64,000 bases of DNA, from assembly GCA_902610585.1 (NCBI GenBank), contig CACLWE010000006.1, positions 9,378 to 73,377 on the forward strand, given 5' to 3'. The stretch comes from an uncultured Pelagibacteraceae bacterium. GTDB taxonomy: Bacteria; Pseudomonadota; Alphaproteobacteria; Pelagibacterales; AG-422-B15. Shown piece by piece: positions 1 to 15,570 of the stretch (within the stretch, counting starts at the first letter, position 1; each line of letters begins with the position of its first letter). The notes under the pieces were generated by a model, which did no database searches, was not told where the DNA came from, and worked only from the letters and a program-made list of their open reading frames with translations. The translations under genes were made by a program, and so were the position numbers.

Positions 1-746
1 GATGCATTACTGAAAATGATAAAGCAGTTGGGGTTGAACTTCACAATGGTGAAAAAATTTATGCAAAAAAAATTATTTCTAATGCAGATCCAAGATCTAC
101 TTATTTTTCCCTTTTAGGAACTGAGAATTTAGATACTGATGTGAAAAGAAGAATCAAACATCACCGATCAAAAGGGAAAGTTGCAAAATTATCATTAAGT
201 CTCAATAAACAACCTGAATTTATTAATTGCGATAAAGATGATTTAGAGAGTAGAATGGTGATCGCGCCGTCAATTGATTATATAGAAGAAGCATTCAATC
301 CAAGTAAATTTGATAAGCTTTCTATGGAACCTATCTTAGAAATGAAACTTAAAAATTCTGACCAGAGTAATCCTGCATTAGATATTCAAGTTCAATATGC
401 TTCCTACGGTGCGCAAGAGGGTTGGGGTAATATTAAAGATAACTATGTAGACGCAGTTATAAAATTAATAGAGAAATATGCACCTGATATTCAAAGCTGT
501 ATAGAGACTAAAGCAATTGTTACTCCTGACGATATAGAAAAAAATTTTCATGTCACAGGTGGACATTGGCATCATGGAGAAATTCAAATTGATCAACTTT
601 TTATGCTCAGACCAATTCCTGGGGCATCACAATATAGAACCCACCTTGATGGACTATATATGTGTGGTGCAGGTACCCATCCAGGTGGAGGCTTAACTGG
701 AATTCCAGGAAGAAATGCAGCTCAAGCTATTTTGGAGGATGCTTAA
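1..746 (+). CDS. FAD/NAD(P)-dependent oxidoreductase, phytoene desaturase (CrtI)/amine-oxidase-like family; C-terminal part, 5' end lies outside the window
   Basis: The frame of ORF 141..746 stays open back to base 3 (CITENDKAVGVELHNGEKIYAKKIISNADP...), so the listed GTG start is an artefact of the window edge. The C-terminal motif MCGAGTHPGGGLTGIPGRNAAQAIL is typical of the CrtI-family FAD-binding C-terminus. Confidence 0.7.
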   Translation, partial: CITENDKAVGVELHNGEKIYAKKIISNADPRSTYFSLLGTENLDTDVKRRIKHHRSKGKVAKLSLSLNKQPEFINCDKDDLESRMVIAPSIDYIEEAFNPSKFDKLSMEPILEMKLKNSDQSNPALDIQVQYASYGAQEGWGNIKDNYVDAVIKLIEKYAPDIQSCIETKAIVTPDDIEKNFHVTGGHWHHGEIQIDQLFMLRPIPGASQYRTHLDGLYMCGAGTHPGGGLTGIPGRNAAQAILEDA

Positions 747-748
747 GT

Positions 749-1948
749 ATGAATAGAGATTTAAGATTTACGGCACTTAAAAAAACTCCTTTTCACTCTA
801 GAACAAGCTTAGCTTCAAGAACAAATAAATATTATAACTGGAACGGTTTTACCGTACCCACAGAATACTCAACAACTGAGTTGGAATATACTGCTGCTAG
901 AAATGGTACTTCAGTTATGGATCTCACGCCTATGTGCAAATACATGATCTATGGCAGCGATGCTAACAGATTTGTTGATTATCTTGTAACAAGAGATTTA
1001 TCACAGATGGAAGACAATACAGTTGCATACATAATATGGTGTAATGAAGATGGTAAAGTGATGGACGATGGTACCATATTTAAATTTTCGAATACAAAAT
1101 TCATGCTTTGCTGTGCAGTAAAGATTTATAATTGGTTACACGACTCTGCTGAAGGTTTTGATGTTTCCTGTGAGGATGCAACAGACACAACTGCTGCATT
1201 AGCAATCCAAGGACCTACTTCTTGTTCAACACTAAAGAACTATGGAGCAGACGACCTTGAATTATTAAAACCATTTGGAATGAAACAATATAATATTAAT
1301 GGATATGATGTTTTAATCTCGCGAACAGGCTTCACAGGTGATTTAGGATACGAATTATGGACTGATCCAGCTAATGCAGAAAACATGTGGGATAGTATTA
1401 TGGAAGCTGGAAAAGAATTAAAGATTAGACCTTTTGGTATGCATGCTCTTGAAATGACAAGGATTGAAGCTGGCTTTATTCAAACCAATACTGATTTTAT
1501 GGCAGCTGAAGATTCCTTAAGACCAGTGAGAATGCGTTCACCGTATGAAATTGGAATGGGTTGGCTGGTTCATCTTAATAAAGAAAGTTACTTTGTCGGT
1601 AAACGCGCTTTAAAGAAAGAAAAAGAGACAGGTAATTCTGAAAGATGTTTAGTTGGACTTGACATAGATGGTGATAAGCCCGCAGTAGGCTCTGTGATCT
1701 ATAATGAAAAAAAAGAAGACATAGGTATTGTTACGGCAGCAATGTGGTCACCTACCATGAAAAGAAACGTTGCGCTCGCATCTCTGAAGCGTCCATATGG
1801 AATTAAGATAAAAGAAAACATTTTTGCAGAAATATATCACCCAGAGGAATTGGAATATAAAAAAATATGGGCAAAGTGTAAGGTTGTAAAAAGACAATTT
1901 TTTAGCCCTGAAAGACGTAACAAAGTACCTGCGGACCTATATGAATAG
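749..1948 (+). CDS. aminomethyltransferase (GcvT/DmdA) family folate-dependent protein
   Basis: The ATG at 749 lies 2 nt after the upstream TAA (744-746). The 662 start would overlap the upstream gene by 85 nt. The protein has GcvT-family features throughout (TPFHSRT..., RTGFTGDLGYELW, RIEAGF) and is about 399 aa. Confidence 0.75.
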   Translation: MNRDLRFTALKKTPFHSRTSLASRTNKYYNWNGFTVPTEYSTTELEYTAARNGTSVMDLTPMCKYMIYGSDANRFVDYLVTRDLSQMEDNTVAYIIWCNEDGKVMDDGTIFKFSNTKFMLCCAVKIYNWLHDSAEGFDVSCEDATDTTAALAIQGPTSCSTLKNYGADDLELLKPFGMKQYNINGYDVLISRTGFTGDLGYELWTDPANAENMWDSIMEAGKELKIRPFGMHALEMTRIEAGFIQTNTDFMAAEDSLRPVRMRSPYEIGMGWLVHLNKESYFVGKRALKKEKETGNSERCLVGLDIDGDKPAVGSVIYNEKKEDIGIVTAAMWSPTMKRNVALASLKRPYGIKIKENIFAEIYHPEELEYKKIWAKCKVVKRQFFSPERRNKVPADLYE

Positions 1949-1979
1949 CCAAAAATGGGGTATTTTTTTAAAATTCAAT

Positions 1980-1999
1980 TATTGAACAGCTGTTCAATA
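1980..1999. promoter_or_regulatory. 20-bp perfect palindrome TATTGAACAGCTGTTCAATA, candidate operator 17 nt upstream of the aminotransferase start codon
   Basis: Read directly from the sequence; it is self-complementary over 20 nt. The half-site TTCAAT/ATTGAA recurs at 1974-1979 and 2010-2015. Confidence 0.35.
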
Positions 2000-2015
2000 T
2001 AAGTTATACTTCAAT

Positions 2016-3413
2016 ATGCCCAAATCAACTCCGATTCCCGAAAAAAAAGATCTCCTTAATGCTCTCGACGACAGAATTCTATACCCATGGCAGTATCTTG
2101 AGTATCGCGGTGAAGACAGCAGGACAATCATTGATAAGTCAAAAGGAATTTATCTTTACGATCAAAGAGGAAGACAGCTTATTGATGGTCCTGGAGGAAT
2201 GTGGAATGTTAACGTGGGACATGGTGTAAAAGAAATTGCTGATGCTGTTTATAATCAGATTACAAAAATGCCATACGCCAGCCCATTTACTGAGTCCACT
2301 GAGATAGCATATAACTATGCTTCACGACTTGTTAAATATGCGCCTGGTGATCTTAAAAGAGTATTTTTTACTTCTGGAGGATCCTCAGCAGTAGACTCTG
2401 CATTAAGATTTGTAATGTTTTATAATAATGTTCGTGGGTTAAGAGATAAGAAACAAATTATCTCGCGTCATGATGCATATCACGGAAGTACATTTTTAGG
2501 GGCTTCATGTTCAGGTAAAGAAAGAGATAAAAACAACTTTGATTTTGCAGATAACTTAGTCCATCATTTGTCTGCGCCAAATCCATTTAAAAAACCAGAT
2601 GACTTAAGCGATGAAGAATTCTGTGATCTAAAAGTTAAAGAGTTAGAAAATAAAATTTTAGAACTTGGTCAAGATAAGGTCGCAGCATTTATTGCAGAGC
2701 CAATCCTAGCATCAGGTGGGGTAATTGTTCCTCCTAAAGGATATCATAAAAAGACAAGAGAAATTTGCACTAAGTACGATGTTATTTATATTTCTGATGA
2801 GATAGTAACCGGCTTTGGAAGATTAGGTCATATATTCGCTTCTGAAAATTATTTTGATTTTGAACCTGATATCATTCTTTTAGCAAAAGGGATTACTTCA
2901 GGATACGTACCTTGTGGTGCAGTTGTTATTTCTGAAAAGCTTATGTCTCAACTTGATAATAAAGAAAAAGTTATATTCTCAAATGGATTTACTGACTCGG
3001 GTCACCCAGTGAGCATGGCAGCAGCAACAGCAACACTTGATTATATTGAAAAAAATAACCTTCTTGAGCATGTACAAGAAGTCGGCCCTTATTTTCAATC
3101 TAAATTAAGTGAATTAATTGATCTCCCGATTGTTGGTGATGTGCGTGGTGAGGGATTAATGGCGGCTGTTGAATGTGTAATCAGTAAAGAAAAAAAAGAT
3201 CCTCTAAATTTACAATACGAGATTGCCTCTCGCATCAATTCACATTGTCAAAATCTTGGTTTAATTGTTAGACCATTATTTAATACGTGTGTCATGTCTC
3301 CTTCTTTGATCATCACTAAGGAACAAATAGATGAGCTCGTCAGTATACTTAGAAAAGGAATTGAGTTAGCTACAGACGACATCAAGAAAGAAGGCCTTTG
3401 GTCTGCATCATAA
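2016..3413 (+). CDS. class-III (omega) aminotransferase, PLP-dependent (SpuC / beta-alanine-pyruvate transaminase-like)
   Basis: 465 aa. Motifs GGMWNVNVGHG, FTSGGSSAVDSALR, DEIVTGFGRLG and a lysine-containing region LLAKGITSG are typical of aminotransferase class III. Confidence 0.85.
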   Translation: MPKSTPIPEKKDLLNALDDRILYPWQYLEYRGEDSRTIIDKSKGIYLYDQRGRQLIDGPGGMWNVNVGHGVKEIADAVYNQITKMPYASPFTESTEIAYNYASRLVKYAPGDLKRVFFTSGGSSAVDSALRFVMFYNNVRGLRDKKQIISRHDAYHGSTFLGASCSGKERDKNNFDFADNLVHHLSAPNPFKKPDDLSDEEFCDLKVKELENKILELGQDKVAAFIAEPILASGGVIVPPKGYHKKTREICTKYDVIYISDEIVTGFGRLGHIFASENYFDFEPDIILLAKGITSGYVPCGAVVISEKLMSQLDNKEKVIFSNGFTDSGHPVSMAAATATLDYIEKNNLLEHVQEVGPYFQSKLSELIDLPIVGDVRGEGLMAAVECVISKEKKDPLNLQYEIASRINSHCQNLGLIVRPLFNTCVMSPSLIITKEQIDELVSILRKGIELATDDIKKEGLWSAS

Positions 3414-3417
3414 ATAA

Positions 3418-4656
3418 ATGCTTGAGCTTAACCATCTGCTAAAAAACTATCAGGAGGGTAAAACTTTACCCCAAGACTTTTATACAAATTCAAATATTTT
3501 TTCCGAGGAGATGAAGCGAATTTATTTCAAGCAGTGGTTAATGGTAGATCACATCAGTCGTATTCCTAATCCAGGTGATTATTTTGTTTTTGATGCCGAA
3601 AAGGAATCCATCATAGTTATTAGAGGAAGAGACAATGAAGTAAGAGCATTTTATAATGTTTGCACTCATCGAGGATCAAGAATCTGTTTAGATGAAGAGG
3701 GTTCAAAAAAACTTTTAGTGTGCCCCTATCATGCTTGGAGTTTTTCAGCAGAAGGTGAACTTAAAGCTGTACGTTTTATGCCGGAGGATTTTAAAAAAGA
3801 AGAGTGGGGTCTTAGAGAGTGTCATCTTAAAATTTATGAAGGATTAATATTTATTAATTTATCTTTAGACGAACCGATGAATTTTGATGAATTCATTGAA
3901 CCCTTAAAAGAAATGATGGAATTTCATCAGACGAGTAAGTCAAAAATTGCAATAAGAAAAAAATATCCAACTCATGCAAATTTTAAATTAGTTCTTGAAA
4001 ATTTTCAGGAGTGTTATCACTGTCCCACAGCACATCCTGAGCTTTGTGCAGTACAGGACAAAGACTGGGTTATCGCAATGGGTGCAGGAATAGGCACTGC
4101 GCCTCAAAAAGAGACTGATGAATATTTAAATAAAATTAAACCTTGGGTCGAGGAATGTAAAAAAAATGGAACTCCGTCTGAGGTTTACCTTGAAACAGAT
4201 GAAGGATTAAAAAAAGGGTTAAACAGATATGTTGATAGAACTCCAATTGGAAACGGAAACTTATCACAAACCAAAGATGGAAAGCCAGCTTCTTCATTAA
4301 TGGGACAATTTAAAGATTTTGATGGAGGACTAACCCAAGTAAGCTTTAATCCATTTGGCTGTTGTTATTTCACAAATGATTTTGGCGTCATGTTTATTTT
4401 TAAACCCATCTCACTTCTAGAGTCTGAAGTAGAACTCATATGGCTTGTAAACGAGGAAGCCGAGGAGAATAAAGACTTTAAGTCTGAGGAAGTAAGCTAT
4501 ATTTGGGATGTTACTACGGCGCATGATACAACAATAATTGAAAATAACCAGAAAGGCCTTCTATCTCAGTCTTTTAAACCAGGAGTTTTATCTGAAAATG
4601 AGTCAGCGGTAACTTATTTTTATAATTGGTATTTTACCAACATGCAGTTACCATAA
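3418..4656 (+). CDS. Rieske [2Fe-2S] non-heme-iron oxygenase alpha subunit (GbcA/CntA/Stc2-like, N-demethylase-type)
   Basis: Rieske ligands CTHRG...CPYHAW are present. The mononuclear-iron motif is E-x3-E-x2-H-x4-H (ENFQECYHCPTAH), with a later conserved Asp (TTAHD). Confidence 0.85.
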   Translation: MLELNHLLKNYQEGKTLPQDFYTNSNIFSEEMKRIYFKQWLMVDHISRIPNPGDYFVFDAEKESIIVIRGRDNEVRAFYNVCTHRGSRICLDEEGSKKLLVCPYHAWSFSAEGELKAVRFMPEDFKKEEWGLRECHLKIYEGLIFINLSLDEPMNFDEFIEPLKEMMEFHQTSKSKIAIRKKYPTHANFKLVLENFQECYHCPTAHPELCAVQDKDWVIAMGAGIGTAPQKETDEYLNKIKPWVEECKKNGTPSEVYLETDEGLKKGLNRYVDRTPIGNGNLSQTKDGKPASSLMGQFKDFDGGLTQVSFNPFGCCYFTNDFGVMFIFKPISLLESEVELIWLVNEEAEENKDFKSEEVSYIWDVTTAHDTTIIENNQKGLLSQSFKPGVLSENESAVTYFYNWYFTNMQLP

Positions 4657-4673
4657 TCTCTGAGCAAGAGAGT

Positions 4674-6029
4674 ATGAAACAACTTTATAACAAAGATATT
4701 TACGACGTTAATAAGCCGGTAAAAAGTTATTGGGAAAAAGTCAGTCAAATAGAACAATATAAATATCCAAAGCTTACCACACATGAAACATGTGATGTTT
4801 GTGTAATAGGAGGGGGCTTTACTGGAATAAGCACAGCTTATCACATTGCAAAAAATTATGGTGGTGATGTGAGATTACTAGAGGCAGGACATTTCGGATT
4901 TGCAAGTAGTGCAAGGAACGCTGGCTTTTGTTGCCTGCCAGCTACTAAACTGTCTGTTAATCAACTAATTAATAAGTTTGGATTAGACGAAACAAAAAAG
5001 TTCTTCGCTTCTCAAATTGAAGGTGTCGAATTATTATCCTCTCTTATTTCTGACAATAATATTGATTGCGAAAAAACAGGTACAGGAAACTTAGATGTTG
5101 CACATCATCCTGATAGCAGTGATGAGTTGAAAAAATGGGGCAATGATTTAAAAAAATATTTTGGCATTAATACAAAGTGGATACCTAAAGAAGAGTTTGA
5201 TGAGGTTGGACATCAGTCTACGGAACAGTTTGGAGCTGTATTTACCGAGGCTGGTTTTGCAATGAATCCAATGGCATTTATGAATGGTTTTGCATCTGCT
5301 ACTGTAGATGCTGGAGCAAAACTTCATAGTTTTTCGAGAGTAAAAAAATGGGAAAGAAATGGATCTCATAAATTAATTACTGATGGCGGCTCCATAACTG
5401 CAAATAAAGTTGTGGTTGCAACTAATGGTTACACAGATGAGTCGCTCCATCCAAGCTTTGCAAACAGAATGATGCCAGTTTTATCTAATATTATTGTAAC
5501 TAGAGAAATGAGTGAGGAAGAATTTAAATTACAAAATTACAAAACCTTAAATCCAATTTGTAATTCAAGAGAGATTTTATATTACTACAGGAGAATGCCT
5601 TCAAATAGAATGTTATTTGGAACTAGAGGTGATACGTACGGTGATGATGCAAGTGCACAAAAAATGAGAGAGTTGATGACACAAAAATTTCGAGGGGTAT
5701 TTCCTAATTGGGATAAAGTAGATATTGACCATTATTGGAGAGGAACAGTTGTTATGACTAGAGATTTTGTTCCCGCATTCGGCGCACTAGATGACGATAA
5801 GTCAGTCCTTTTTTCATATGGCTATCAGGCCAATGGTAATAATACCACAGTTTATTGTGGAAAGAAGTTAGCCGAAATGATTTATGAGTCCAATAGTGGA
5901 GAAACGAATATATCAAAAGTGTATCAAGGGCTTTCTCCAAAAATACCATTAGGCTTTTTAAGATTATGGTATTTAAGACTTTATTTATGGTATTCAAATT
6001 TTACAGATAAAAGTAAAAAAGAAATATAA
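4674..6029 (+). CDS. FAD-dependent oxidoreductase, DAO family (gamma-glutamylamine oxidase PuuB/PauB-like)
   Basis: The ATG at 4674 lies 18 nt after the upstream stop and is preceded by GAGAG. The dinucleotide fold motif VCVIGGGFTGISTAY is present. The 4626 start would overlap the previous gene. Confidence 0.8.
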   Translation: MKQLYNKDIYDVNKPVKSYWEKVSQIEQYKYPKLTTHETCDVCVIGGGFTGISTAYHIAKNYGGDVRLLEAGHFGFASSARNAGFCCLPATKLSVNQLINKFGLDETKKFFASQIEGVELLSSLISDNNIDCEKTGTGNLDVAHHPDSSDELKKWGNDLKKYFGINTKWIPKEEFDEVGHQSTEQFGAVFTEAGFAMNPMAFMNGFASATVDAGAKLHSFSRVKKWERNGSHKLITDGGSITANKVVVATNGYTDESLHPSFANRMMPVLSNIIVTREMSEEEFKLQNYKTLNPICNSREILYYYRRMPSNRMLFGTRGDTYGDDASAQKMRELMTQKFRGVFPNWDKVDIDHYWRGTVVMTRDFVPAFGALDDDKSVLFSYGYQANGNNTTVYCGKKLAEMIYESNSGETNISKVYQGLSPKIPLGFLRLWYLRLYLWYSNFTDKSKKEI

Positions 6030-6065
6030 ATTGCATCTACTATTTTTATAAATTAAAATTTTCTT

Positions 6066-6950
6066 ATGTTGCAAACTTGGAAGGCATTTTACGCAAGGAG
6101 TGATCCTGCTAAAGCTTATTCACTACTATCTCCAGCATTGATCTTAGTCACTTTGGCTATGCTTGTGCCCTTGGGACTAATGTTGAGTTTCAGTTTTTTT
6201 ACTCAAATAAGTTTTACGGAAATCGACTATTCTTTCACAATTCAGAGATACATTGATTTTTTTCAAAAGAATTTACTTGTCTCACTACTTATCAAATCAG
6301 TGAAGATTTCTTTTATTGTAACTTTCGTGACTCTGCTTACTGCTTATCCAGTTTGTTACTACATCGCTTTTTATGTAAAGAAAAATAAAATGTTATGGCT
6401 AGTTCTTTTGACTTTACCTTTCTGGACATCTTACCTTTTACGAGTGTTTTCATGGAAAATTATACTTGGAACTAAGGGAGTTATTAATTCATCTTTAATT
6501 AATGCTGGACTATTAAATGAACCACTCACTTTTCTAATGTATTCAGAGACGGCAGTCATTATTACCCTCACTCATGCATGGGCGGCATTTGCATTATTAC
6601 CCTTATATGTTTCATTAGATAAAATTGATTTTTCCTTAATTGAAGCCGCCAGAGACTTAGGGTTATCAAGATTTGAAACTTTTTGGAAAATCACACTTCC
6701 ATTATCTCTTCCTGGAATAATCGGCGCTATATTGATCATCTTTATTCCAACTGTTGGAGATTATGTCACTCCTGCCTTGCTTGGGGGAACCGATGGAAGA
6801 ATGCTTTCAAACATGATTCAAGCTTACTTTGGCAAAGTTAATAACCTTCCTTTAGGAGCCGCTTCTGCAACCATAATGCTTATAACTGTAGCAATAGTGA
6901 CCATAGTTGTTTCATACACAACAAAAAAACTCACTCAGAGGATTTCATAA
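6066..6950 (+). CDS. ABC transporter permease, spermidine/putrescine (PotB/PotH)-like
   Basis: Polytopic membrane protein with an EAA loop (IEAARDLGLSRFETFWKITLP). Confidence 0.85.
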   Translation: MLQTWKAFYARSDPAKAYSLLSPALILVTLAMLVPLGLMLSFSFFTQISFTEIDYSFTIQRYIDFFQKNLLVSLLIKSVKISFIVTFVTLLTAYPVCYYIAFYVKKNKMLWLVLLTLPFWTSYLLRVFSWKIILGTKGVINSSLINAGLLNEPLTFLMYSETAVIITLTHAWAAFALLPLYVSLDKIDFSLIEAARDLGLSRFETFWKITLPLSLPGIIGAILIIFIPTVGDYVTPALLGGTDGRMLSNMIQAYFGKVNNLPLGAASATIMLITVAIVTIVVSYTTKKLTQRIS

Positions 6951-7766
6951 GTGGAACAAAAGAATAATACATTGTTAATCTATACATTATTGTATTTTGC
7001 ATTTTTATATATTCCCGTTTTATTCTTGCCTATTTTTAGTTTTAACGATGCAAATTACATGTCGTTTCCTCTCTCAGGATTCACAACAGAGCATTATGAA
7101 GAAATGTGGGCAAAAACAAATCTACATAAAGCTCTTTGGGCTAGTATCAAAGTAGGTGTGGTCGCAAGTATCGTCAGTACAACAATTGCACTTTTTGCAG
7201 CCAAAGCCTTTGCACGTTATAAATTTAGGGGACAAAATATTTCATACGGAGCTATTATGATTCCTTTTTTGATTCCTGAAATAATCTTAGCCGTTGCAAT
7301 ACTTGTCATTTGGTTAAGTCTTGGTTTCAAGCTCGGACTAGTACCGGTAACTTTAGGACATATTCTTTTTTGTACTCCATTTGCAATGCTTATTTTAATT
7401 GCTCGCATAGAAGGTTTTGATTTCTCTCTTGAAGAAGCATCAAGAGATCTTGGAGAAAATGCTTGGGGGACATTTTATCGAGTTTCTCTCCCCTTATACT
7501 TGCCAGGTATAATTGCTTCACTTTTGTTGAGTTTTATTATTTCTTTTGATGAATTTGTTCTCGCATTTTTCTTAACAGGAAGCGATGCTACTTTGCCTAT
7601 GTATATGTGGGCTCAAATGAGATTTATTCAGAAACTACCACACGTGTTGGCTTTAGGGGCAGTTATAATTGTATTTACTACTTTTATTGTTTTGTTAGCA
7701 TTCTGGTTAAGAAACCTAGGCCAAGGAAAAGAGAAAGCTGAATTTGGAATAAAAATACATGAATAA
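6951..7766 (+). CDS. ABC transporter permease, PotC/PotI-like
   Basis: GTG start immediately after the upstream TAA. EAA loop present (LEEASRDLGENAWGTFYRVSLP). Confidence 0.85.
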   Translation: MEQKNNTLLIYTLLYFAFLYIPVLFLPIFSFNDANYMSFPLSGFTTEHYEEMWAKTNLHKALWASIKVGVVASIVSTTIALFAAKAFARYKFRGQNISYGAIMIPFLIPEIILAVAILVIWLSLGFKLGLVPVTLGHILFCTPFAMLILIARIEGFDFSLEEASRDLGENAWGTFYRVSLPLYLPGIIASLLLSFIISFDEFVLAFFLTGSDATLPMYMWAQMRFIQKLPHVLALGAVIIVFTTFIVLLAFWLRNLGQGKEKAEFGIKIHE

Positions 7767-8841
7767 TTCTTTCATACAGATAAACGGAATTTCAAAGCAT
7801 TTTGGGAATGTAAAAGCTGTAGATGATGTGTCCTTTGAAATTAAAGAGGGAGAGTTTTTTTCTCTTCTTGGCCCGTCAGGCTGTGGCAAGACAACTTTAC
7901 TGAGATTACTAGCTGGATTCGAATATCCAACCAGTGGGAGCCTATTACTTGATGGTATTGATATTACTGCATTACCTCCCGACAAAAGACCCACAAATAT
8001 GGTTTTTCAGAATTACGCAATTTTTCCACACATCAATGTTGAAAAAAATGTACAGTTTGGTTTAAGAAAACTTGGTCTAACAAACGATGAAATTATCAAA
8101 AGAGTTAAAGACGTTTTGTCGTTGGTTAAACTAGAAGGATATGAGGAACGCTATAGTAGCCAACTATCTGGAGGTCAAAGACAAAGAGTGGCATTGGCGA
8201 GGGCTTTAGTAAGACAACCCAAGGTCTTATTGCTAGATGAACCACTTGGAGCATTAGATAAAAAGTTACGAGATGAAATGCAACTTGAATTAAGAACTCT
8301 GCAAAAAGAGATTGGAATAACATTTGTATTTGTTACACATGATCAGCAAGAAGCCATTAGTATGTCTGATCGAGTCGCGGTGATGAGCGAAGGTAAAATC
8401 CAACAGATGTCATCTCCAAATGAATTATATAAAAACCCACAAAATATTTTTGTGAGTGACTTTATTGGTGAAACTAATTTTCTAAAAGCCAATACAGAGT
8501 TGAAAGATGGCGAGTATATTAATGTAAACATTGAAAATCTTGGCTCCTTTAAAATAAAAAATAATCTCAATATAAGTGAAAATGCTTCGGAGGTTATTTG
8601 CAGTGTTCGTCCTGAGACTATGATGATAGATACAGAAAAATCAGATTGGGATATTTGCTTAGAAGGCAAAATTAAGCAAACATCATATTTGGGAGAAATG
8701 ACTAAATTTTATGTTGAAACCAAAGAGATAGAAAAAATTATAACTGTATCGTCACAATATTTTGACAATCAGTCTTTTCAAGATGGTAAATGCTTTATCA
8801 GCATAAACCTAAACGATATTTCCTTACTGAATAAAAAATAG
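7759..8841 (+). CDS. ABC transporter ATP-binding protein, PotA/PotG-like
   Basis: Walker A GPSGCGKTT, signature LSGGQRQR, Walker B LLLDEP. It overlaps the permease gene by 8 nt. Confidence 0.9.
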   Translation: MNNSFIQINGISKHFGNVKAVDDVSFEIKEGEFFSLLGPSGCGKTTLLRLLAGFEYPTSGSLLLDGIDITALPPDKRPTNMVFQNYAIFPHINVEKNVQFGLRKLGLTNDEIIKRVKDVLSLVKLEGYEERYSSQLSGGQRQRVALARALVRQPKVLLLDEPLGALDKKLRDEMQLELRTLQKEIGITFVFVTHDQQEAISMSDRVAVMSEGKIQQMSSPNELYKNPQNIFVSDFIGETNFLKANTELKDGEYINVNIENLGSFKIKNNLNISENASEVICSVRPETMMIDTEKSDWDICLEGKIKQTSYLGEMTKFYVETKEIEKIITVSSQYFDNQSFQDGKCFISINLNDISLLNKK

Positions 8842-8895
8842 CCTGTCCTCAAGAGAGAACAAGCTATTTTAAATTAGTTAATAATTAGTAGTGTA

Positions 8896-9984
8896 TTAAC
8901 CACCAGCTACCATTTCAGCCCACTGAGCTTCCATGTAGTCTGTCACTTCGTCAGTTGGCATCACCGAGAACATTCCATTATTTAAATGTTCTATAGGATT
9001 TGAAGCAACGCCACGTTCAGCTAATTCGTCAGCTGTAAGTGTGCTAAATCCAGCTTTATTACTGTGTCCATAACCCCACTCACTTAATAAGTAAGCAGAT
9101 GTTTCAGCACTAGTAGCGCCATTTATCATCGCGTATGCTTTATCAAGGTCTGCACCTTTAACAATTGCAAGACCACATGCCCAAGTCATCGTGCCATTAG
9201 GAGGCTGCATCATTTTAGCTCCTGCGCTCCAAGCAATTTCGTTCCAGCCAAGTGCTACGTCTATTTCTTCGTTACCTAGCGCTTCTATCATTGAAGAAGT
9301 ATCTCCAAAGAATGCACGAATTTGTCCATTGTCTCTCATTTCACGGAACTTATCGATACCTTGATCAATAGCAGCTTTAGTTAGTTGATCTTGCTCTCTG
9401 ATATCAATTCCAAGATGGTGCATCATTAAGAACAAAGAGTCAGCTGCAGAGTCTAATATACCGACTTTACCTTTCACTCGAGGATCCTCCATAAGAGCAA
9501 AACTTTCATTAGAAGCATCCATCCAATCAATTCTATCAGCCATGTAAAACAATGTTGTGTCGCCCCAATCTACAGGTGCAAAATAATGCTTTCCATCGAC
9601 TATACCGCTTGGTAGATCTCTAACTTCAGGGAACATATCATCCCAGTTGTCAATTCTAGATGGATCAAGTGGCTCTAAAACGCCAGCTCTTACCCATCTC
9701 TTAATTTCTCCTTGGCATGGCCAGGCTAAATCAACCTCAAAACCAGCTTTTAGTTTTTGTAATCCTTCTTCAGCATCACCGAATATTGAATACTCAGGTG
9801 AACCGTGTTCTTCAGCATATGTACCAAACAGTCCATCATCATCGTAACCTCCCCAAAGGAATACAGACCCAGGCTCATCTGCAAAAACTTTTGTCGTACT
9901 TGTTACGCCTGCAATAAAAACAAACGACAGCATCACGATTACAGTTTTTACAAAGAAATCCTTAATTTCATTGTATCTTTGCAT
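8896..9984 (-). CDS. periplasmic substrate-binding protein of a Pot-type (polyamine/amine) ABC transporter
   Basis: N-terminal signal-like segment (VIVMLSFVFIAGVTSTTKVFA). About 360 aa with an acidic/aromatic PotD/PotF-like composition. Sits adjacent to the ABC genes. Confidence 0.8.
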   Translation of the reverse strand: MQRYNEIKDFFVKTVIVMLSFVFIAGVTSTTKVFADEPGSVFLWGGYDDDGLFGTYAEEHGSPEYSIFGDAEEGLQKLKAGFEVDLAWPCQGEIKRWVRAGVLEPLDPSRIDNWDDMFPEVRDLPSGIVDGKHYFAPVDWGDTTLFYMADRIDWMDASNESFALMEDPRVKGKVGILDSAADSLFLMMHHLGIDIREQDQLTKAAIDQGIDKFREMRDNGQIRAFFGDTSSMIEALGNEEIDVALGWNEIAWSAGAKMMQPPNGTMTWACGLAIVKGADLDKAYAMINGATSAETSAYLLSEWGYGHSNKAGFSTLTADELAERGVASNPIEHLNNGMFSVMPTDEVTDYMEAQWAEMVAGG

Positions 9985-10019
9985 AATTAATTAATCCTTT
10001 TTTTTGTTTAAACGTGAAA

Positions 10020-10049
10020 ATTGTACACCCATTTTGGAAATATGGTCAA
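10020..10049 (-). promoter_or_regulatory. sigma70-like promoter for the substrate-binding protein gene (-35 TTGACC, 18-nt spacer, -10 TACAAT on the minus strand)
   Basis: Plus-strand GGTCAA at 10044-10049 and ATTGTA at 10020-10025. An AAGGA Shine-Dalgarno lies upstream of the ATG at 9984. Confidence 0.4.
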
Positions 10050-10055
10050 TATATA

Positions 10056-11549
10056 TCAGTCTAGAATAGGCCTATTTTTCGCACTATTCAGCCACGGATC
10101 GACCATTTCATAGTTGTACCCTCCTTGAAATACTAATTCATCACAGTAGGAGCGTGAAATAATCTGGATGCCAGTAGGCACTCGGTTTGAACTAAAGCCA
10201 GAGGGTACGGAAAGGACTGGCAGTTTACCCAACATATTGAATGGGTGAGACATGCACCATGCAAAGTCAGCACATTCTTGTTCTTTGCCATTAATAATGA
10301 CGCGGTCATTAACTATATCAATATCTGCTTTGATTGCTGGTAAGGCATTGGTGGGGCAAATAAATAAATCATATTTTTCCAATATTGGACCAATTTCTTC
10401 ATACATTTTTCCAGTCACCATTGCACTTTCTTCAACGCTATAACCCAAGTGAGCACCAATTTGTTCGTGATAAATTTTTTTATTATTTTTTAGGGAGTCA
10501 ATGTGCATTTCAGTAACACCGCTGAACATTTTTGTGTAATCACTCAGCTGTTCTTTTTCAGAATCTGAAAGCTCAGAAATTTCTTTATAAAAAGAATTTG
10601 CATAATGACTGAAGCAAACCGAATTTACTTCATCTTTTTTCCAATTAAGTTTCACCTCTGTGACCTGACATCCAAGACTTTCAAATTTTTTTAACGCTGT
10701 CAGTGTGTTCTGTTCTACTTCTTTATCAATCTCAAAAAATCCCAAGTCCATTGAATAAGCTATTTTCCAATTTTTAATATTTTCGTAATTTAATGGTAAT
10801 GTTTTTTTTGGACGTAAAGATGTTATGTCTTTTTCGTTTGGTCCACACATAATGTTTTGCATCATTGCAGTATCAACTACTGTTCTTGCGAGTGGTCCTG
10901 TTACGCAGTAAGGGTCATGATTGAATGGATAACTTTGTGCATTTCTTCCATGAGGTGGCTTGAATCCGACTACACCACATGCGCCTGCTGGTATTCTTAT
11001 TGAACCTCCAATGTCACTTCCTGTTGTCAACATTGCACAACCTGAAGCTAATGCAGCCGCACTACCTCCACTTGATCCACCAGGTGTCATATCTAAGTTC
11101 CAAGGATTTCTTGTGACGCCATTTAGTTTCGAGTGACAAAAAGAAGTGAGAGAAAATTCTGGATTGGTTGTGCGACCGTGAAGTATCGCGCCAGAATTGA
11201 CTATTGTTTCAACATCAATGTCAGTTTTCTGTGCGATATTATTCTTGAGAAGCAAACAACCATTACGATTTGGTTGTCCTTTTATATTCACCTCATCTTT
11301 TATTGCTAAAGGTAATCCTTCAAGAGGCAGAACATCATCACTATTGAAAAATTTTTTCTCAGACTCTTTTGCCAGTTCTATAGACTTATCAAAATCAAGA
11401 TGATTAAATGCATTTATCTTAGGATTAATTGTTTCTATTCTTTTAATTACAGCCGACAGTACTTCAACTGGAGATAATTTTTTTTCTTTATACTTCTTTA
11501 ATGTATCTGAAGCGGATAAATAACAAATTTCAATATCAGTATCATTCAT
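10056..11549 (-). CDS. amidase-signature family amidase (GatA-like fold)
   Basis: 497 aa. AS-family glycine/serine-rich motif GGSSGGSAAALASG followed by GSDIGGSIRIPA. Confidence 0.85.
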   Translation of the reverse strand: MNDTDIEICYLSASDTLKKYKEKKLSPVEVLSAVIKRIETINPKINAFNHLDFDKSIELAKESEKKFFNSDDVLPLEGLPLAIKDEVNIKGQPNRNGCLLLKNNIAQKTDIDVETIVNSGAILHGRTTNPEFSLTSFCHSKLNGVTRNPWNLDMTPGGSSGGSAAALASGCAMLTTGSDIGGSIRIPAGACGVVGFKPPHGRNAQSYPFNHDPYCVTGPLARTVVDTAMMQNIMCGPNEKDITSLRPKKTLPLNYENIKNWKIAYSMDLGFFEIDKEVEQNTLTALKKFESLGCQVTEVKLNWKKDEVNSVCFSHYANSFYKEISELSDSEKEQLSDYTKMFSGVTEMHIDSLKNNKKIYHEQIGAHLGYSVEESAMVTGKMYEEIGPILEKYDLFICPTNALPAIKADIDIVNDRVIINGKEQECADFAWCMSHPFNMLGKLPVLSVPSGFSSNRVPTGIQIISRSYCDELVFQGGYNYEMVDPWLNSAKNRPILD

Positions 11550-11601
11550 TACGATTTTTTATTTAAATTTAACAATTATTAAAATATATTGAAAATTATT
11601 T

Positions 11602-12696
11602 ATGATAAGTGAAAAAATCAAAAGTTTAATACAAAGCCAAGATCCACACGCGGGAATGGATCAACTTTTCTTTACAAATTCAGAGATATTTCATGCAAGT
11701 TATGATGCAATTTTCAAAAAACAGTGGGTTTTTCTCACCCATCTCTCGTTCTTTAATCAAAACGATATCTTTACATACAACTTAAATAAAGGATTTATAG
11801 AGATAAAAAAAACAGATGATAATCAACTTTCAATTTCCGCATCTGATCCAAATATTAAATGTCATTTAAAAGTGTATGAGAGTTTAGTATTTATCAATTT
11901 ATCAAACTCTCCCCATTCATTTAGTGAATTCATTAAACCACTTGAACCATACATCAAAATACATGGATTGAATGATGGTAAGATTGCTTTTCAAAAAGAT
12001 TTTATTTTTAATGCTTCACATTTAGCTACAATTCATAATTTCAAAGAATGCGCTCATTGCTGGGGAGGCGAATTTACGCACAAAGATTATCTAAGTGTGC
12101 ATGGTGAAGATTATTGCAATTCTTATGGAGCAGGTGTTGGTTCGGGGATTGAGGCCCCTAAACTTACAAAACGTATTAAAGAATGGACAGAACAAACTTT
12201 AAAAAGAGGTTTATTTGTTGGAGAGTTCAGTGAACATGACTCAAAATATTTTAGAATTGCAGAGCGCACACCTTTACCTGAAGGTATTGCATCAGAAACA
12301 ATGGATGGCAGTTATTCTTGTTCAACATTGATGGGAGATTTTAAGGAGATTGGCGCTGACAATGGTTATACTGCAATTGGTTTCAGCCCATTTAACAGCT
12401 TTGTTGCAAATAACGAATTTGTAATACTTTTTTTATTCTCACCAATTAGTCAAAATAAAACAGTAGTGACCCAATATTGGGTAACTCATAAAGATGCGGA
12501 AGTTGATGTTGATAAAATGATTTTTTTGTGGGACCAAACTTCAACTGAAGATTCCCAGTTATGTGAAATGAATCAAAAAGGAATTGAAAGCAGGTCCTAT
12601 CAGCCTGGCAAATATGGGGATTTAGAGACGAGCTTAGTTCAATATCAGAAATTTTACCTTAATCATTTACAGACACACCTGAACGACTTAGTCTAA
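11602..12696 (+). CDS. Rieske-oxygenase alpha-subunit paralog lacking the Rieske cluster ligands (catalytic-domain-like protein)
   Basis: Alignable by eye with the 3418..4656 protein at both ends (FYTNSNIFSEE.../FFTNSEIFHAS...; CHLKIYEGLIFINLS/CHLKVYESLVFINLS; NQKGL/NQKGI). The CxH...CxxH segment is absent. The second iron His is displaced (ECAHCWGGEFTH). Confidence 0.6.
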   Translation: MISEKIKSLIQSQDPHAGMDQLFFTNSEIFHASYDAIFKKQWVFLTHLSFFNQNDIFTYNLNKGFIEIKKTDDNQLSISASDPNIKCHLKVYESLVFINLSNSPHSFSEFIKPLEPYIKIHGLNDGKIAFQKDFIFNASHLATIHNFKECAHCWGGEFTHKDYLSVHGEDYCNSYGAGVGSGIEAPKLTKRIKEWTEQTLKRGLFVGEFSEHDSKYFRIAERTPLPEGIASETMDGSYSCSTLMGDFKEIGADNGYTAIGFSPFNSFVANNEFVILFLFSPISQNKTVVTQYWVTHKDAEVDVDKMIFLWDQTSTEDSQLCEMNQKGIESRSYQPGKYGDLETSLVQYQKFYLNHLQTHLNDLV

Positions 12697-12714
12697 TCTT
12701 AATTCGAAACCTAT

Positions 12715-14085
12715 ATGGAACTTGCGACACAATCAGAATTTGATGAAGTACTTAATAGTCATCATAATATCCAATATGTAGACGCAATATTTACAGACCT
12801 CTGTGGATATGTGAGGGGAAAAAGATTTCCAGTACTAGAGGCAGATAAAATTTTTTCAGATGGTGTATTGTTACCTTTCTCAGCATTTTATTTAGATGTC
12901 CTCGGTGGCGTAACCAACACGATGAATCTTGGTTGGACTGACGGAGATCCAGATGGGGTTTTAATGCCCGTTAAAAATTCCATAAAGCCCGTCCCTTGGG
13001 ATAGTAAGGTTCTTCAAGTACTAATTTCTATGAGAAAAGAACAGGAAAAATGGGGTGTAATAGAAAATCCGGCGGAAGTTGACCCAAGAAATATTTTAGA
13101 AAAAGTAATGAATAAATTCAAAGGCACCGGATTTAATCCAGTAGTGGCTTTTGAATTAGAGTTTTATTTGTTGGATAAGAAAAGAAATGAGGAAGGCAAG
13201 CCAGTTCCTGCATTAGGTGCAAGTAAAACTCATGTATATGGAATTCCTGATCTTGATATGTTTGGGAATTTATTTAATGAAATTAACGAGAACTGTAAAA
13301 TACAAGATATCCCTGCAACAACAGCTTCAAGTGAATTTGCTGCTGGCCAGTACGAAATTAATTTAAAGCATACCGGTGATCTGCTTAAAGCAGCGGATGA
13401 TGCAGCAATGTTAAGAAGAATAATAAAAGAAACAACTGCAAAGCATGGGTTTGAAGCAACATTTATGGCAAAGCCATTTCTTGAGGAGACTGGAAATGGA
13501 ATGCACCTGCATATTTCAGTGTACGATGATGATGAAAAAAATATTTTTGCAACTAAGAATCGTTACGGAAATGATAAGTTAAAAAATGCTTTAGCTGGTT
13601 TTCAAGAAACTTTTTATGACTCATTTCCAATTTTTATTCCAAATAGAAATGGTTATCGAAGAATACAAACCCGAAATTTTGTTCCTGTAAATAAAAGTTG
13701 GTCTTGGAATCGAAGAGATGTTTCATTGAGAATACCCGCTGGATCAGATAGCGCAAAAAGAATTGAACATCGGGTAGCATCAGCTGATGCAAATCCATAT
13801 CTTGTTTTAGCCTGTATCCTTTCTGGACTTCATCATGGACTTACAAAAAAACTGTCACCAACAGGCCAAGTAAGTTTTGATAACACTGAAGGCGCTGATA
13901 AGACTGCTGATCCTGAAATGCCAAAAAATATGGAGTCAGCACTAAATCGTTTTAAAGAGTCAAAACTTTTATCTAAGTATTTAGGTAAAGAATATCTTGA
14001 TTTATACGTATCAGCCAAAGAAGGTGAATTTGAACATATGGATAACAGTTTTATTCCCTCAGAAGAATACGACTTTTATTTATAG
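12715..14085 (+). CDS. glutamine synthetase-like enzyme (gamma-glutamyl-amine synthetase, PuuA/PauA/GmaS-type)
   Basis: 456 aa. GS catalytic-domain motifs are present (FELEFYL, GQYEINL, GNGMHLHIS, NGYRR, RIEHRV..ADANPYL). Confidence 0.8.
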   Translation: MELATQSEFDEVLNSHHNIQYVDAIFTDLCGYVRGKRFPVLEADKIFSDGVLLPFSAFYLDVLGGVTNTMNLGWTDGDPDGVLMPVKNSIKPVPWDSKVLQVLISMRKEQEKWGVIENPAEVDPRNILEKVMNKFKGTGFNPVVAFELEFYLLDKKRNEEGKPVPALGASKTHVYGIPDLDMFGNLFNEINENCKIQDIPATTASSEFAAGQYEINLKHTGDLLKAADDAAMLRRIIKETTAKHGFEATFMAKPFLEETGNGMHLHISVYDDDEKNIFATKNRYGNDKLKNALAGFQETFYDSFPIFIPNRNGYRRIQTRNFVPVNKSWSWNRRDVSLRIPAGSDSAKRIEHRVASADANPYLVLACILSGLHHGLTKKLSPTGQVSFDNTEGADKTADPEMPKNMESALNRFKESKLLSKYLGKEYLDLYVSAKEGEFEHMDNSFIPSEEYDFYL

Positions 14086-14089
14086 ATTT

Positions 14090-14809
14090 ATGACTGACCT
14101 TCTTTTCAATCAAGATAGTTACTTAAAAGAAACAGAAGCCAGTATTATTGGAGTTGAAGAAAATATAATAAAATTTGATAGAACAATTTTTTATGCAGAG
14201 TCAGGTGGACAACCTGGGGATCAAGGCGAGATTGTATTAAAGGACCAAGTTCTCAAAGTTGTAGACACTAAAAAAGGATCAAAGCCGAATGAAATTTTGC
14301 ATATTGTTGATGGTCCCATCGATCAAAGCTTAATTAATCAATCCGCCGAACTTAAGATCAATTGGGAACTTAGATATGCTCATATGAAAATGCACTCGAG
14401 TTGCCATATTTTGTGTAGCTTAGTTGATGCCCTTATAACAGGCGCGTCGGTTGGAAGTGCTAAATCAAGAATAGATTTTGATGTTGATCCATCAATGCTA
14501 AATAAAGAAGAGTTAAATGAGAAGATTAGGGATATTATTAGTAAAGACTATCCCATAATCATAAATCAAATTACAGGAGATGAACTAAAATCAAATCCTC
14601 ACTTAGCTAAAGGGGCTGCTGTTTCACCTCCAGTTATAGATAACAAAGTACAAACAGTTCAAATTGGTGAGGGAGAAAACATTATCGATCTTCAATGTTG
14701 TGGAGGAACACATTGCCAATCTACAAAAGAAATTGGACCACTTGAGATTGGAAAGATTGAAAATAAAGGTAAAAGAAACAGGCGAATTAATATAAGGTTT
14801 AGTTCATGA
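14090..14809 (+). CDS. AlaX-type alanyl-tRNA-synthetase editing-domain (tRNA_SAD) metal-dependent hydrolase
   Basis: The ATG at 14090 lies 4 nt after the GS-like stop. N-terminal FYAESGGQPGD barrel motif. Zinc motifs H-x3-H (HMKMH, then SCH) and CCGGTHC are present. Confidence 0.75.
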   Translation: MTDLLFNQDSYLKETEASIIGVEENIIKFDRTIFYAESGGQPGDQGEIVLKDQVLKVVDTKKGSKPNEILHIVDGPIDQSLINQSAELKINWELRYAHMKMHSSCHILCSLVDALITGASVGSAKSRIDFDVDPSMLNKEELNEKIRDIISKDYPIIINQITGDELKSNPHLAKGAAVSPPVIDNKVQTVQIGEGENIIDLQCCGGTHCQSTKEIGPLEIGKIENKGKRNRRINIRFSS

Positions 14810-15570
14810 CGGATATTTTAGTCAGTAAAGATGATGGACAAGTTGTAACGCTCACTCTTAATGATGCACCAGCAAATTGCCTGACAATGGAGATGATGTC
14901 AGCAATTAAAATGGAGACAGATCGTATAAACCAATCCAAAGATCACAAACTTGTTATATTTGAAAGTTCAAATGAAAAAATCTTTTGTAGCGGACATAGT
15001 TTTAATGAAGTTCAAGAGATGATTAAAAACAATGATAAGAAATCACAAGAACTTTTATTTGCGGAGTGCTCTGAAATGTTAATGAAAATTAGAACAAGTC
15101 CAAAGATTTTTATTGCTAAGGTAAGAGGTATTGCAACCGCTGGCGGACTTGGATTAGTCAGTATAATGGATTGTGTTTTTAGTTCTAAATCAGCAAGATT
15201 TGCGCTTGGTGGTATAAACTTTAATTTTGGCTGTCATCAACCGTCAGTATCTGTAGCCCGTGCAATATCCTCAAAAAATGTTATGGAATTATTAGTGAGC
15301 GGTCAGCCTCTTAGCGCTCAAAGAGCACAAGAAGCTGGACTCATCAACGAATATTTAGAAGACGACGAATTAGATAAAAGGGTCGAACTATTTTCTCAAC
15401 AAGTTTGTGATCATACACCCGCAGTACTCGCGCTCACGAAAGAAACATTATACAAGCAGTCAGCAATGAAAATTTCAGATGCCTACGACTTTGCAAGTAA
15501 AGCAATGGTTGAAAATCTACAAATGCCTGAAACTAAGAAGGGTATAGATACTTTTTTAAATAAAAATTAA
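14806..15570 (+). CDS. enoyl-CoA hydratase/isomerase (crotonase) family protein
   Basis: 254 aa. ATGA overlap with the AlaX-like gene. Crotonase-like pattern (FCSGHSF..., GIATAGGLGL). Confidence 0.75.
   Translation: MTDILVSKDDGQVVTLTLNDAPANCLTMEMMSAIKMETDRINQSKDHKLVIFESSNEKIFCSGHSFNEVQEMIKNNDKKSQELLFAECSEMLMKIRTSPKIFIAKVRGIATAGGLGLVSIMDCVFSSKSARFALGGINFNFGCHQPSVSVARAISSKNVMELLVSGQPLSAQRAQEAGLINEYLEDDELDKRVELFSQQVCDHTPAVLALTKETLYKQSAMKISDAYDFASKAMVENLQMPETKKGIDTFLNKN

Follow-up and report, generated by a model that had tools for sequence, protein, structure and literature searches.

A conserved two-module gene island in one SAR11 family and its possible role in the catabolism of methylated amines

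BetI is a choline-responsive TetR repressor of the bet genes, and tetrahydrofolate-linked N-demethylases (dimethylglycine and sarcosine dehydrogenases, heterotetrameric sarcosine oxidase and N-methylglutamate dehydrogenase) combine a flavin adenine dinucleotide (FAD)-dependent amine-oxidising part with a GcvT-fold folate part. Together with the Rieske monooxygenases that N-demethylate quaternary amines, namely GbcA (glycine betaine), Stc2 (stachydrine) and CntA (carnitine), the Puu/Pau gamma-glutamyl polyamine pathways, aniline dioxygenase (TdnQ/AtdA1) and the Ipu pathway for isopropylamine, which employs a P450, these are the described systems closest to a gene island that lies at the beginning of a 64,000-nucleotide stretch of DNA from SAR11 (hereafter, the window; G000:C6:9378-73377, contig CACLWE010000006.1). 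SAR11 bacteria dominate the surface ocean, and a few catabolic islands largely determine the range of dissolved compounds of nitrogen and carbon that they take out of it. The 9.4 kb before the window were also examined, as locus L004, which runs across the window start.

A previous sequence-only reading had recognised 14 adjacent genes here, and all of them were confirmed with their first-named families by Pfam and NCBIfam profile scans of the window and upstream open reading frames (ORFs). The island is, however, more modular and less polyamine-like than was first proposed. Because of the pocket residues of its binding protein, its BetI-like regulator, its GbcA/Stc2-like Rieske oxygenase and its GcvT-like protein, we consider it somewhat probable (roughly 55%) that the island serves the regulated import and degradation, in two modules, of a mono-cationic, probably N-methylated or quaternary (choline- or betaine-like) amine. 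Module A comprises the TetR regulator, two CrtI-like flavoproteins, the GcvT-like protein, the aminotransferase, the Pot-type ATP-binding cassette (ABC) importer and, sometimes, the Rieske oxygenase, while module B comprises the amidase, a Rieske-less oxygenase paralog, the PuuA-like ligase, the AlaX-like protein and the crotonase. The features are as follows (positions without a prefix are those of the window):

L004:1234-1998, minus strand: PuuD-like Peptidase_C26 hydrolase (35% identity to PuuD; PRK11366, 136 bits versus a cut-off of 266)
L004:6238-6903, minus strand: BetI-like TetR regulator (PF00440 and PF13977), 2.5 kb before window position 1
L004:6932-6947: putative TetR operator, copy 1, exact palindrome TTGAATAATCATTCAA, in the TetR/CrtI intergenic region
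L004:6984-8612, plus strand: first CrtI-like flavoprotein (542 residues), upstream of the window, a paralog of the 503-residue protein
L004:8612-10123, plus strand: full second CrtI-like flavoprotein (503 residues), cut by the window edge
1-746 (ORF 3-746), plus strand: C-terminal half of the second CrtI-like (COG1233-type) FAD flavoprotein, with only partial NCBIfam CrtO/CrtI matches
749-1948, plus strand: stand-alone GcvT-like folate-binding aminomethyltransferase (PF01571, 199 bits; PF08669), with a likely start at ATG 749, preceded by a GGAGG motif
1982-1997: putative TetR operator, copy 2, 16-bp variant palindrome TTGAACAGCTGTTCAA, upstream of the aminotransferase gene
2016-3413, plus strand: class-III (omega) aminotransferase (PF00202, 289 bits; PRK07036, 646 bits versus a cut-off of 618)
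3418-4656, plus strand: Rieske non-haem-iron oxygenase alpha subunit of the GbcA/Stc2 branch (Pfam Rieske and Ring_hydroxyl_A)
4674-6029, plus strand: DAO-family FAD amine oxidase or dehydrogenase (PF01266, 182 bits), with ATG 4674 as the likely true start
6066-8841, plus strand: PotB-, PotC- and PotA-like ABC permeases and ATPase (Pfam/NCBIfam)
8896-9984, minus strand: PotD/PotF-family periplasmic binding protein (Pfam and structure search)
10056-11549, minus strand: amidase-signature amidase (PF01425, 288 bits; GGSSGGS motif)
11602-12696, plus strand: Rieske-less oxygenase alpha-subunit paralog (Ring_hydroxyl_A, no Rieske domain)
12715-14085, plus strand: glutamine synthetase (GS)-family ligase (PF00120, 295 bits; NCBIfam GGputSyn, 179 bits versus a cut-off of 650)
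14090-14809, plus strand: AlaX-like metal hydrolase (NCBIfam AlaXM NF040865, 187 bits versus a cut-off of 300), with ATG 14090 as the likely true start and the zinc motifs HxxxH (HMKMH at residue 98) and CxxxH (CGGTH at residue 204)
14806-15570, plus strand: crotonase-family enzyme (PF00378, 114 bits)

To assess the substrate class, the binding protein of the importer was aligned with E. coli PotF and PotD. The positions compared, which we take to be the polyamine ligands, bear the expected letters in the E. coli sequences aligned. At PotF W37, S38, D39, E185, W244, D247, F276, D278 and Y314, the window protein has W, G, G, D, W, I, W, C and Y, respectively. Thus, of the positions that hold acids in PotF (D39, E185, D247 and D278) and PotD (E36, D168, E171 and D257), a single one, E185/E171, has an acidic residue here (Asp). 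The others are G, I/T/S or C, and the aromatic cage of PotF (W, W, W, Y) is kept. This signature is common to SAR11 alleles that are only 40% identical and to distant binding proteins, outside SAR11, whose genes are linked to the flavoprotein trio described below. As far as aligned residues can tell, such a one-acid pocket favours a mono-cationic methylated amine over a polyamine. Every member of the binding-protein family, including the distant ones outside SAR11, has cysteines in place of PotD S83 and D257 (PotF D278).

Glycine betaine and dimethylsulfoniopropionate were shown by Clifton et al. (PMC11485210) to be ligands of a "PotD" from SAR11 strain HTCC1062 and, consequently, a Pot label is no sign of polyamines in SAR11. 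The genome studied here has two further Pot-type ABC systems (C11:143-6192 and, on C5, L051:12477-17922), whose binding proteins are at most 25% identical to that of the island; one of these systems lies beside an aldehyde dehydrogenase gene, and the binding protein of the other has a twin-arginine translocation signal. The osmolyte importer characterised in SAR11 could correspond to either of the two.

The binding-site residues weaken the polyamine interpretation of the importer and, with it, a different account of the whole island. According to this account, putrescine, spermidine, norspermidine or a related compound would be imported and glutamylated by the ligase, the DAO flavoprotein and the aminotransferases would act on the free amino end, the Rieske oxygenases would cleave an internal C-N bond, and the PuuD-like hydrolase or the amidase would free the glutamate. 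What the island has in common with the Puu/Pau pathways is a PuuA-like ligase, a Pot-family importer, class-III aminotransferases, a DAO flavoprotein and a linked PuuD-like Peptidase_C26 protein. No other protein of the genome is a better PuuA homolog than the ligase (38.8% identity to E. coli PuuA, full length), and the PuuD-like gene is its only PuuD homolog, linked to the island in five of five genomes, on either side. The PotA-, PotB- and PotC-like proteins score top on polyamine models, and an additional Amino_oxidase gene is found within distant loci that carry module A. Moreover, a second type of SAR11 cluster (L047:8596-14002 and L048:5589-9572), formed by genes for a DAO protein, a full-length Rieske protein, a GS-like protein and a second DAO protein, adjoins agmatine-deiminase-like and CN-hydrolase (N-carbamoylputrescine-amidase-like) genes. 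Its Rieske protein is 48% identical to that encoded at 3418-4656 and 35-39% identical to the Rieske-less paralog, and a 45%-identical homolog of the island DAO protein is also encoded beside the Rieske gene in L048.

By contrast, the binding protein has no counterparts of the residues that accommodate the second and third amino groups (D39, D247 and D278 in PotF; E36, D168 and D257 in PotD), the regulator is BetI-like, and the GcvT-like and GbcA/Stc2-like proteins point to N-methyl groups, both the Rieske and the GcvT components being foreign to Puu. The DAO protein, previously called a PuuB-like oxidase, is only 29% identical to E. coli PuuB, and a better homolog (39.5%) is encoded elsewhere, at G000:C8:23500-24786, among housekeeping genes; the same is true for the best PuuC homolog (49%; C8:809-2269). 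The absence of an aldehyde dehydrogenase from the island, which had been pointed out before, holds for the whole contig C6, as the five PF00171 proteins of the genome are all encoded on other contigs. On balance, we consider a polyamine island unlikely, although the account keeps an appreciable weight.

The regulation of the island also differs from what was first described. Like BetI, the regulator has a TetR-type helix-turn-helix and a BetI-type C-terminal domain (PF13977), its gene is divergent from its putative target genes (the CrtI-like flavoprotein operon), and a palindrome is present in the shared promoter. Unlike in the case of BetI, the genes that it would control are not betA or betB, and its scores are below both BetI cut-offs (TIGR03384, 107 versus 201.3; PRK00767, 105.9 versus 118). 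As the window edge cuts off this gene, the reported absence of a transcription factor was an artefact, and one of the two operator copies is in fact inside the window, where it overlaps a -35-like hexamer of a promoter-like site (1982-2010). A degenerate operator pattern matches only twice in about 29 kb of the genome's own sequence; in related SAR11 loci, it is found in 36 loci at each of the two sites and almost nowhere else, and the changes observed across loci stay symmetric (e.g., TTGAATAGCTATTCAA). Judging from this sequence pattern, the TetR repressor most likely binds the 16-bp palindrome at two promoters. Since the operator is present at two promoters and the intergenic gaps between the genes in 2016-8841 are of 36 nucleotides or fewer, the repressor probably controls two operons, a putative regulon that would consist of CrtI1-CrtI2-GcvT and aminotransferase-Rieske-DAO-PotBCA. 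A scan for promoters and terminators gave no signal above chance.

The 53-bp divergent promoter between the amidase and Rieske-less genes (11549-11602) is AT-rich and strongly conserved across lineages. It contains a perfect AT-rich palindrome, TTTATTAATTAATAAA, in a lineage with 80% identity, and TTTAACAATTATTAAA in the window, and this palindrome could be a second operator or merely promoter sequence.

The Rieske protein encoded at 3418-4656 has as nearest solved structures 3n0q (1e-71), Stc2 (3vca/4qup, 5e-68) and CntA (3e-40), Stc2, a stachydrine demethylase, being the closest of its solved relatives for which a function is named. As in GbcA, Stc2 and CntA, there is a Rieske motif (CxH...CxxH, with C82, H84, C102 and H105 as ligands) and a 2-His-1-carboxylate iron site (H201, H206 and D370), and the enzyme would be alpha-only, with no beta-subunit gene nearby. 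Its score against the GbcA equivalog (294.6 bits) does not reach the cut-off of 670. In contrast to the GbcA/Stc2/CntA systems, a search of 41 SAR11 genomes revealed no reductase gene of the GbcB/CntB type (the host, 77% complete, and 40 relatives; 19 of the 41 are at least 90% complete), as neither the FNR-type domain PF00175 nor the ferredoxin-reductase C-terminal domain PF14759 occurs in any of them (0/41 in both cases). The lack of a reductase noticed earlier in the window is, thus, shared by the whole set. A plant-type ferredoxin of 133 residues is encoded on contig C3 of the genome.

We know of no pairing with a Rieske-less paralog in the GbcA, Stc2 or CntA systems. When the paralog is aligned with the full-length Rieske protein, it shows a clean deletion of a block of about 54 residues that carries the cluster ligands, while it keeps the bridging Glu (E149), H152 and H160 (H-x7-H) and D317, all of them invariant in 11 family members. 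Matches to this family came from SAR11 alone, with identities of at least 60%. The prediction of a complex between the two proteins gave an ipSAE of 0.78, compared with 0.00 for the best of three controls; of 80 solved complexes, 58 come up to that mark, as do 2 of 110 mismatched pairs, counts that hold only roughly here, as our own alignments were used. Three runs shared at least 98% of the contacts, with a pLDDT (predicted local distance difference test) of at least 90 for the partner, and the predicted interface places the Rieske loops 79-88 and 101-106 against the iron-site region of the paralog (151-158 and 320-341). The same head-to-tail contact is seen in the solved alpha trimers of Rieske oxygenases and, therefore, the score may mirror likeness to known structures and is not a proof of binding. 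We propose only tentatively, as a possible but doubtful model, that the paralog would be a working catalytic subunit, and not a defunct copy, that borrows the [2Fe-2S] cluster of the Rieske protein in a mixed oligomer. Such an enzyme would be hetero-oligomeric, with two different active sites, a non-dedicated electron donor and a gamma-glutamylated or methylated amine as substrate. The locus thereby raises the question of how a Rieske oxygenase functions in bacteria in which neither of the reductase marker domains searched for was found, and with a partner subunit that misses its own cluster.

The genome encodes another Rieske oxygenase, 28% identical, on contig C4 (L049:7913-13369), together with an M20 peptidase, a creatinase/M24-like protein and a divergently encoded DUF3604 protein. 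Considered as a relative of the island, this gene was set aside because its neighbourhood is unrelated, and the locus may be a separate small catabolic unit.

The GcvT-like protein, encoded immediately after the two flavoproteins, is another component that suggests N-methyl groups. The full-length second flavoprotein matches Pfam Amino_oxidase, the fragment in ORF 3-746 having no Pfam match, and the two CrtI-like paralogs are 29% identical to each other. The top NCBIfam match of the GcvT-like protein is the C-terminal part of trimethylamine N-oxide demethylase (267 bits, below the cut-off). The association of an FAD amine-oxidising part with a GcvT-fold folate part recalls the tetrahydrofolate-linked N-demethylases, but, as far as the families assigned can indicate, the candidate flavoproteins of the island are a CrtI/COG1233-type pair instead of DAO-type, and the GcvT-like part would be a separate polypeptide. 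No description of a core made of two CrtI-like flavoproteins and a folate protein under a BetI-like repressor was found in the literature searched. Conservation of the first flavoprotein is unusually high, with 100% protein identity across many species-level genomes and still 93-94% where the Rieske protein is down to 78%.

How far all these genes work together is a separate matter, on which comparative data are informative. The gene order is identical, from the upstream aminotransferase gene through the AlaX-like gene, in 40 of 40 species-level SAR11 loci (compared wherever their DNA extends); that is, the genes are clustered and not dispersed. This order is also kept in lineage L045/L046, which has 60% identity in the Rieske-less protein and lacks the genes for the amidase and the AlaX-like protein; in L045, the crotonase gene directly follows the GS-like gene. 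Two marker genes, those of the Rieske-less protein and of the first flavoprotein, were counted in genomes with a completeness of 80% or higher. In the SAR11 family to which the host belongs, 25 of 27 genomes carry the one and 25 of 27 the other, whereas neither occurs in any of 173 genomes of the sister family, which holds the complete, closed genomes. As it is near-universal in one family and was not found in these 173 genomes of the other, the island may mark a substrate niche that separates these lineages.

Outside SAR11, we sampled 10 genomes, from other alphaproteobacterial families and one other class, that have CrtI1 orthologs with 55-63% identity, and examined 20 kb per locus. The genes for TetR, both flavoproteins and the GcvT-like protein are adjacent in all 10. 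A Pot-type ABC system (orthologs with 48-54% identity) lies by the flavoprotein trio in eight, and an aminotransferase gene (48-50% identity) in three. The additional neighbours include an amine oxidase (Amino_oxidase), an amino-acid permease and an Oxidored_FMN/Pyr_redox_2 protein. None of the genes for the DAO protein, the GS-like ligase, the amidase, the Rieske-less paralog, the AlaX-like protein or the crotonase turned up in these 20-kb regions. Since the distant loci hold module A genes alone, it follows that a widely conserved module A was joined to module B only in this SAR11 family. The earlier notion of a composite pathway is, thus, only partially sustained: the SAR11 cluster is conserved, but a single pathway was an overstatement, as only the TetR, flavoprotein pair, GcvT, aminotransferase and ABC genes are together outside SAR11.

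These data could also be explained without any single pathway, if independent small operons for nitrogen compounds had been packed in a streamlined genome and were co-inherited by linkage only. In addition to the clustering of module A alone outside the family, this explanation would account for an operator present at just two promoters, for the amidase and AlaX-like genes coming and going, for a block of Peptidase_C26, acyl-CoA dehydrogenase and aminotransferase genes that switches sides, and for the independent swapping of the ABC cassette, where the binding protein is 40-99% identical and the enzymes 97-99%. Linkage only, however, agrees poorly with an order of A and B genes that is kept in 40 loci, down to 60% protein identity, and with two markers that share the same presence pattern. 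In addition, the modules are interleaved, as the binding-protein gene sits in the divergent promoter region of module B, and, according to the complex model, the Rieske-less paralog of module B would require the Rieske protein of module A. We consider independent operons decidedly unlikely. With respect to the cassette (6066-9984), a comparison with loci L005-L042 shows a mosaic, with permeases that are 65-100% identical and a binding protein that is only 40-99% identical (for example, 41% in L006), between flanking enzymes that remain at 97-99%. It seems to have been exchanged by recombination independently of the enzymes, with the binding-site signature retained.

Several observations weigh against a two-module island for a methylated amine as well. 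The pocket argument comes from a sequence alignment and not from a ligand-bound structure. Among the NCBIfam models, no equivalog cut-off is reached by any enzyme, the only cut-off exceeded by an island protein being that of the generic aminotransferase model PRK07036. No TetR-type palindrome was found, in the pattern search, before the binding-protein, amidase or 11602-15570 units, and one SAR11 lineage can dispense with the amidase and AlaX-like genes. In some lineages, the Peptidase_C26-acyl-CoA dehydrogenase-aminotransferase block flanks the island on the opposite side. In the 10 distant loci, modules A and B are never together, a Rieske gene is found in only two and a DAO gene in none. 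Finally, the proposed oxygenase step has no partner reductase of the PF00175 or PF14759 type in the 41 SAR11 genomes.

Even so, the earlier suggestion of an imported, possibly methylated amine or osmolyte fits the BetI-like repressor, the GbcA/Stc2-like Rieske protein, the GcvT-like protein and the single-carboxylate pocket. No close characterised homolog places the genes in an already described pathway: solved-structure searches, used to find the nearest characterised homologs, gave no close one for the island proteins. When the binding protein and the Rieske-less paralog were compared with a large protein collection, the matches had no informative names, no paper describing the cluster was found when the literature was searched for this gene combination, and no described pathway matching the island was found.

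If the island does degrade a methylated amine, the compound would be taken up by the Pot-family ABC importer, whose binding protein combines an aromatic cage with one carboxylate. The GbcA/Stc2-like Rieske monooxygenase could then strip an N-methyl or N-alkyl group that is beyond the reach of flavoproteins, and the two CrtI-like flavoproteins and the GcvT-like protein may pass the remaining N-methyl groups to tetrahydrofolate. The resulting primary amino group would be taken off by the omega-aminotransferase, the DAO flavoprotein or both. Module B, with the PuuD-like hydrolase linked nearby, would probably gamma-glutamylate an amine, oxygenate it and hydrolyse the product, following the logic of the Ipu pathway and aniline dioxygenase, a role suggested by gene adjacency only. 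Electrons for the oxygenases would come from a general donor, with no dedicated reductase. The resemblance to the Ipu and aniline systems lies in a GS-like ligase gene directly beside that of an oxygenase subunit, with amide hydrolases nearby. In contrast to aniline dioxygenase (TdnQ-TdnT-TdnA1A2B type), the Pfam calls include no beta-subunit or reductase family for any island ORF, the island oxygenases are GbcA/Stc2-like and not aromatic-ring-hydroxylating, and the one adjacent to the ligase has no Rieske cluster.

Upstream of the window, the order of genes in L004 is, toward the window, PdxA, LysE, the PuuD-like Peptidase_C26 gene (minus strand), an acyl-CoA dehydrogenase gene and a second class-III aminotransferase gene, followed by genes for a GNAT acetyltransferase, a major facilitator superfamily transporter and the BetI-like TetR (all on the minus strand), the 542-residue CrtI-like protein and, lastly, the gene cut by the window edge. 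The block from PdxA to the aminotransferase, upstream of the island here, is downstream of PdxH in other lineages (L097, L098 and L024); for instance, a lineage with 66% identity keeps all the genes of the island and has this block on the opposite side, as does L024. From this difference in position, it follows that the island and the EamA-DjlA-PdxH genes were rearranged, relative to this block, as one unit.

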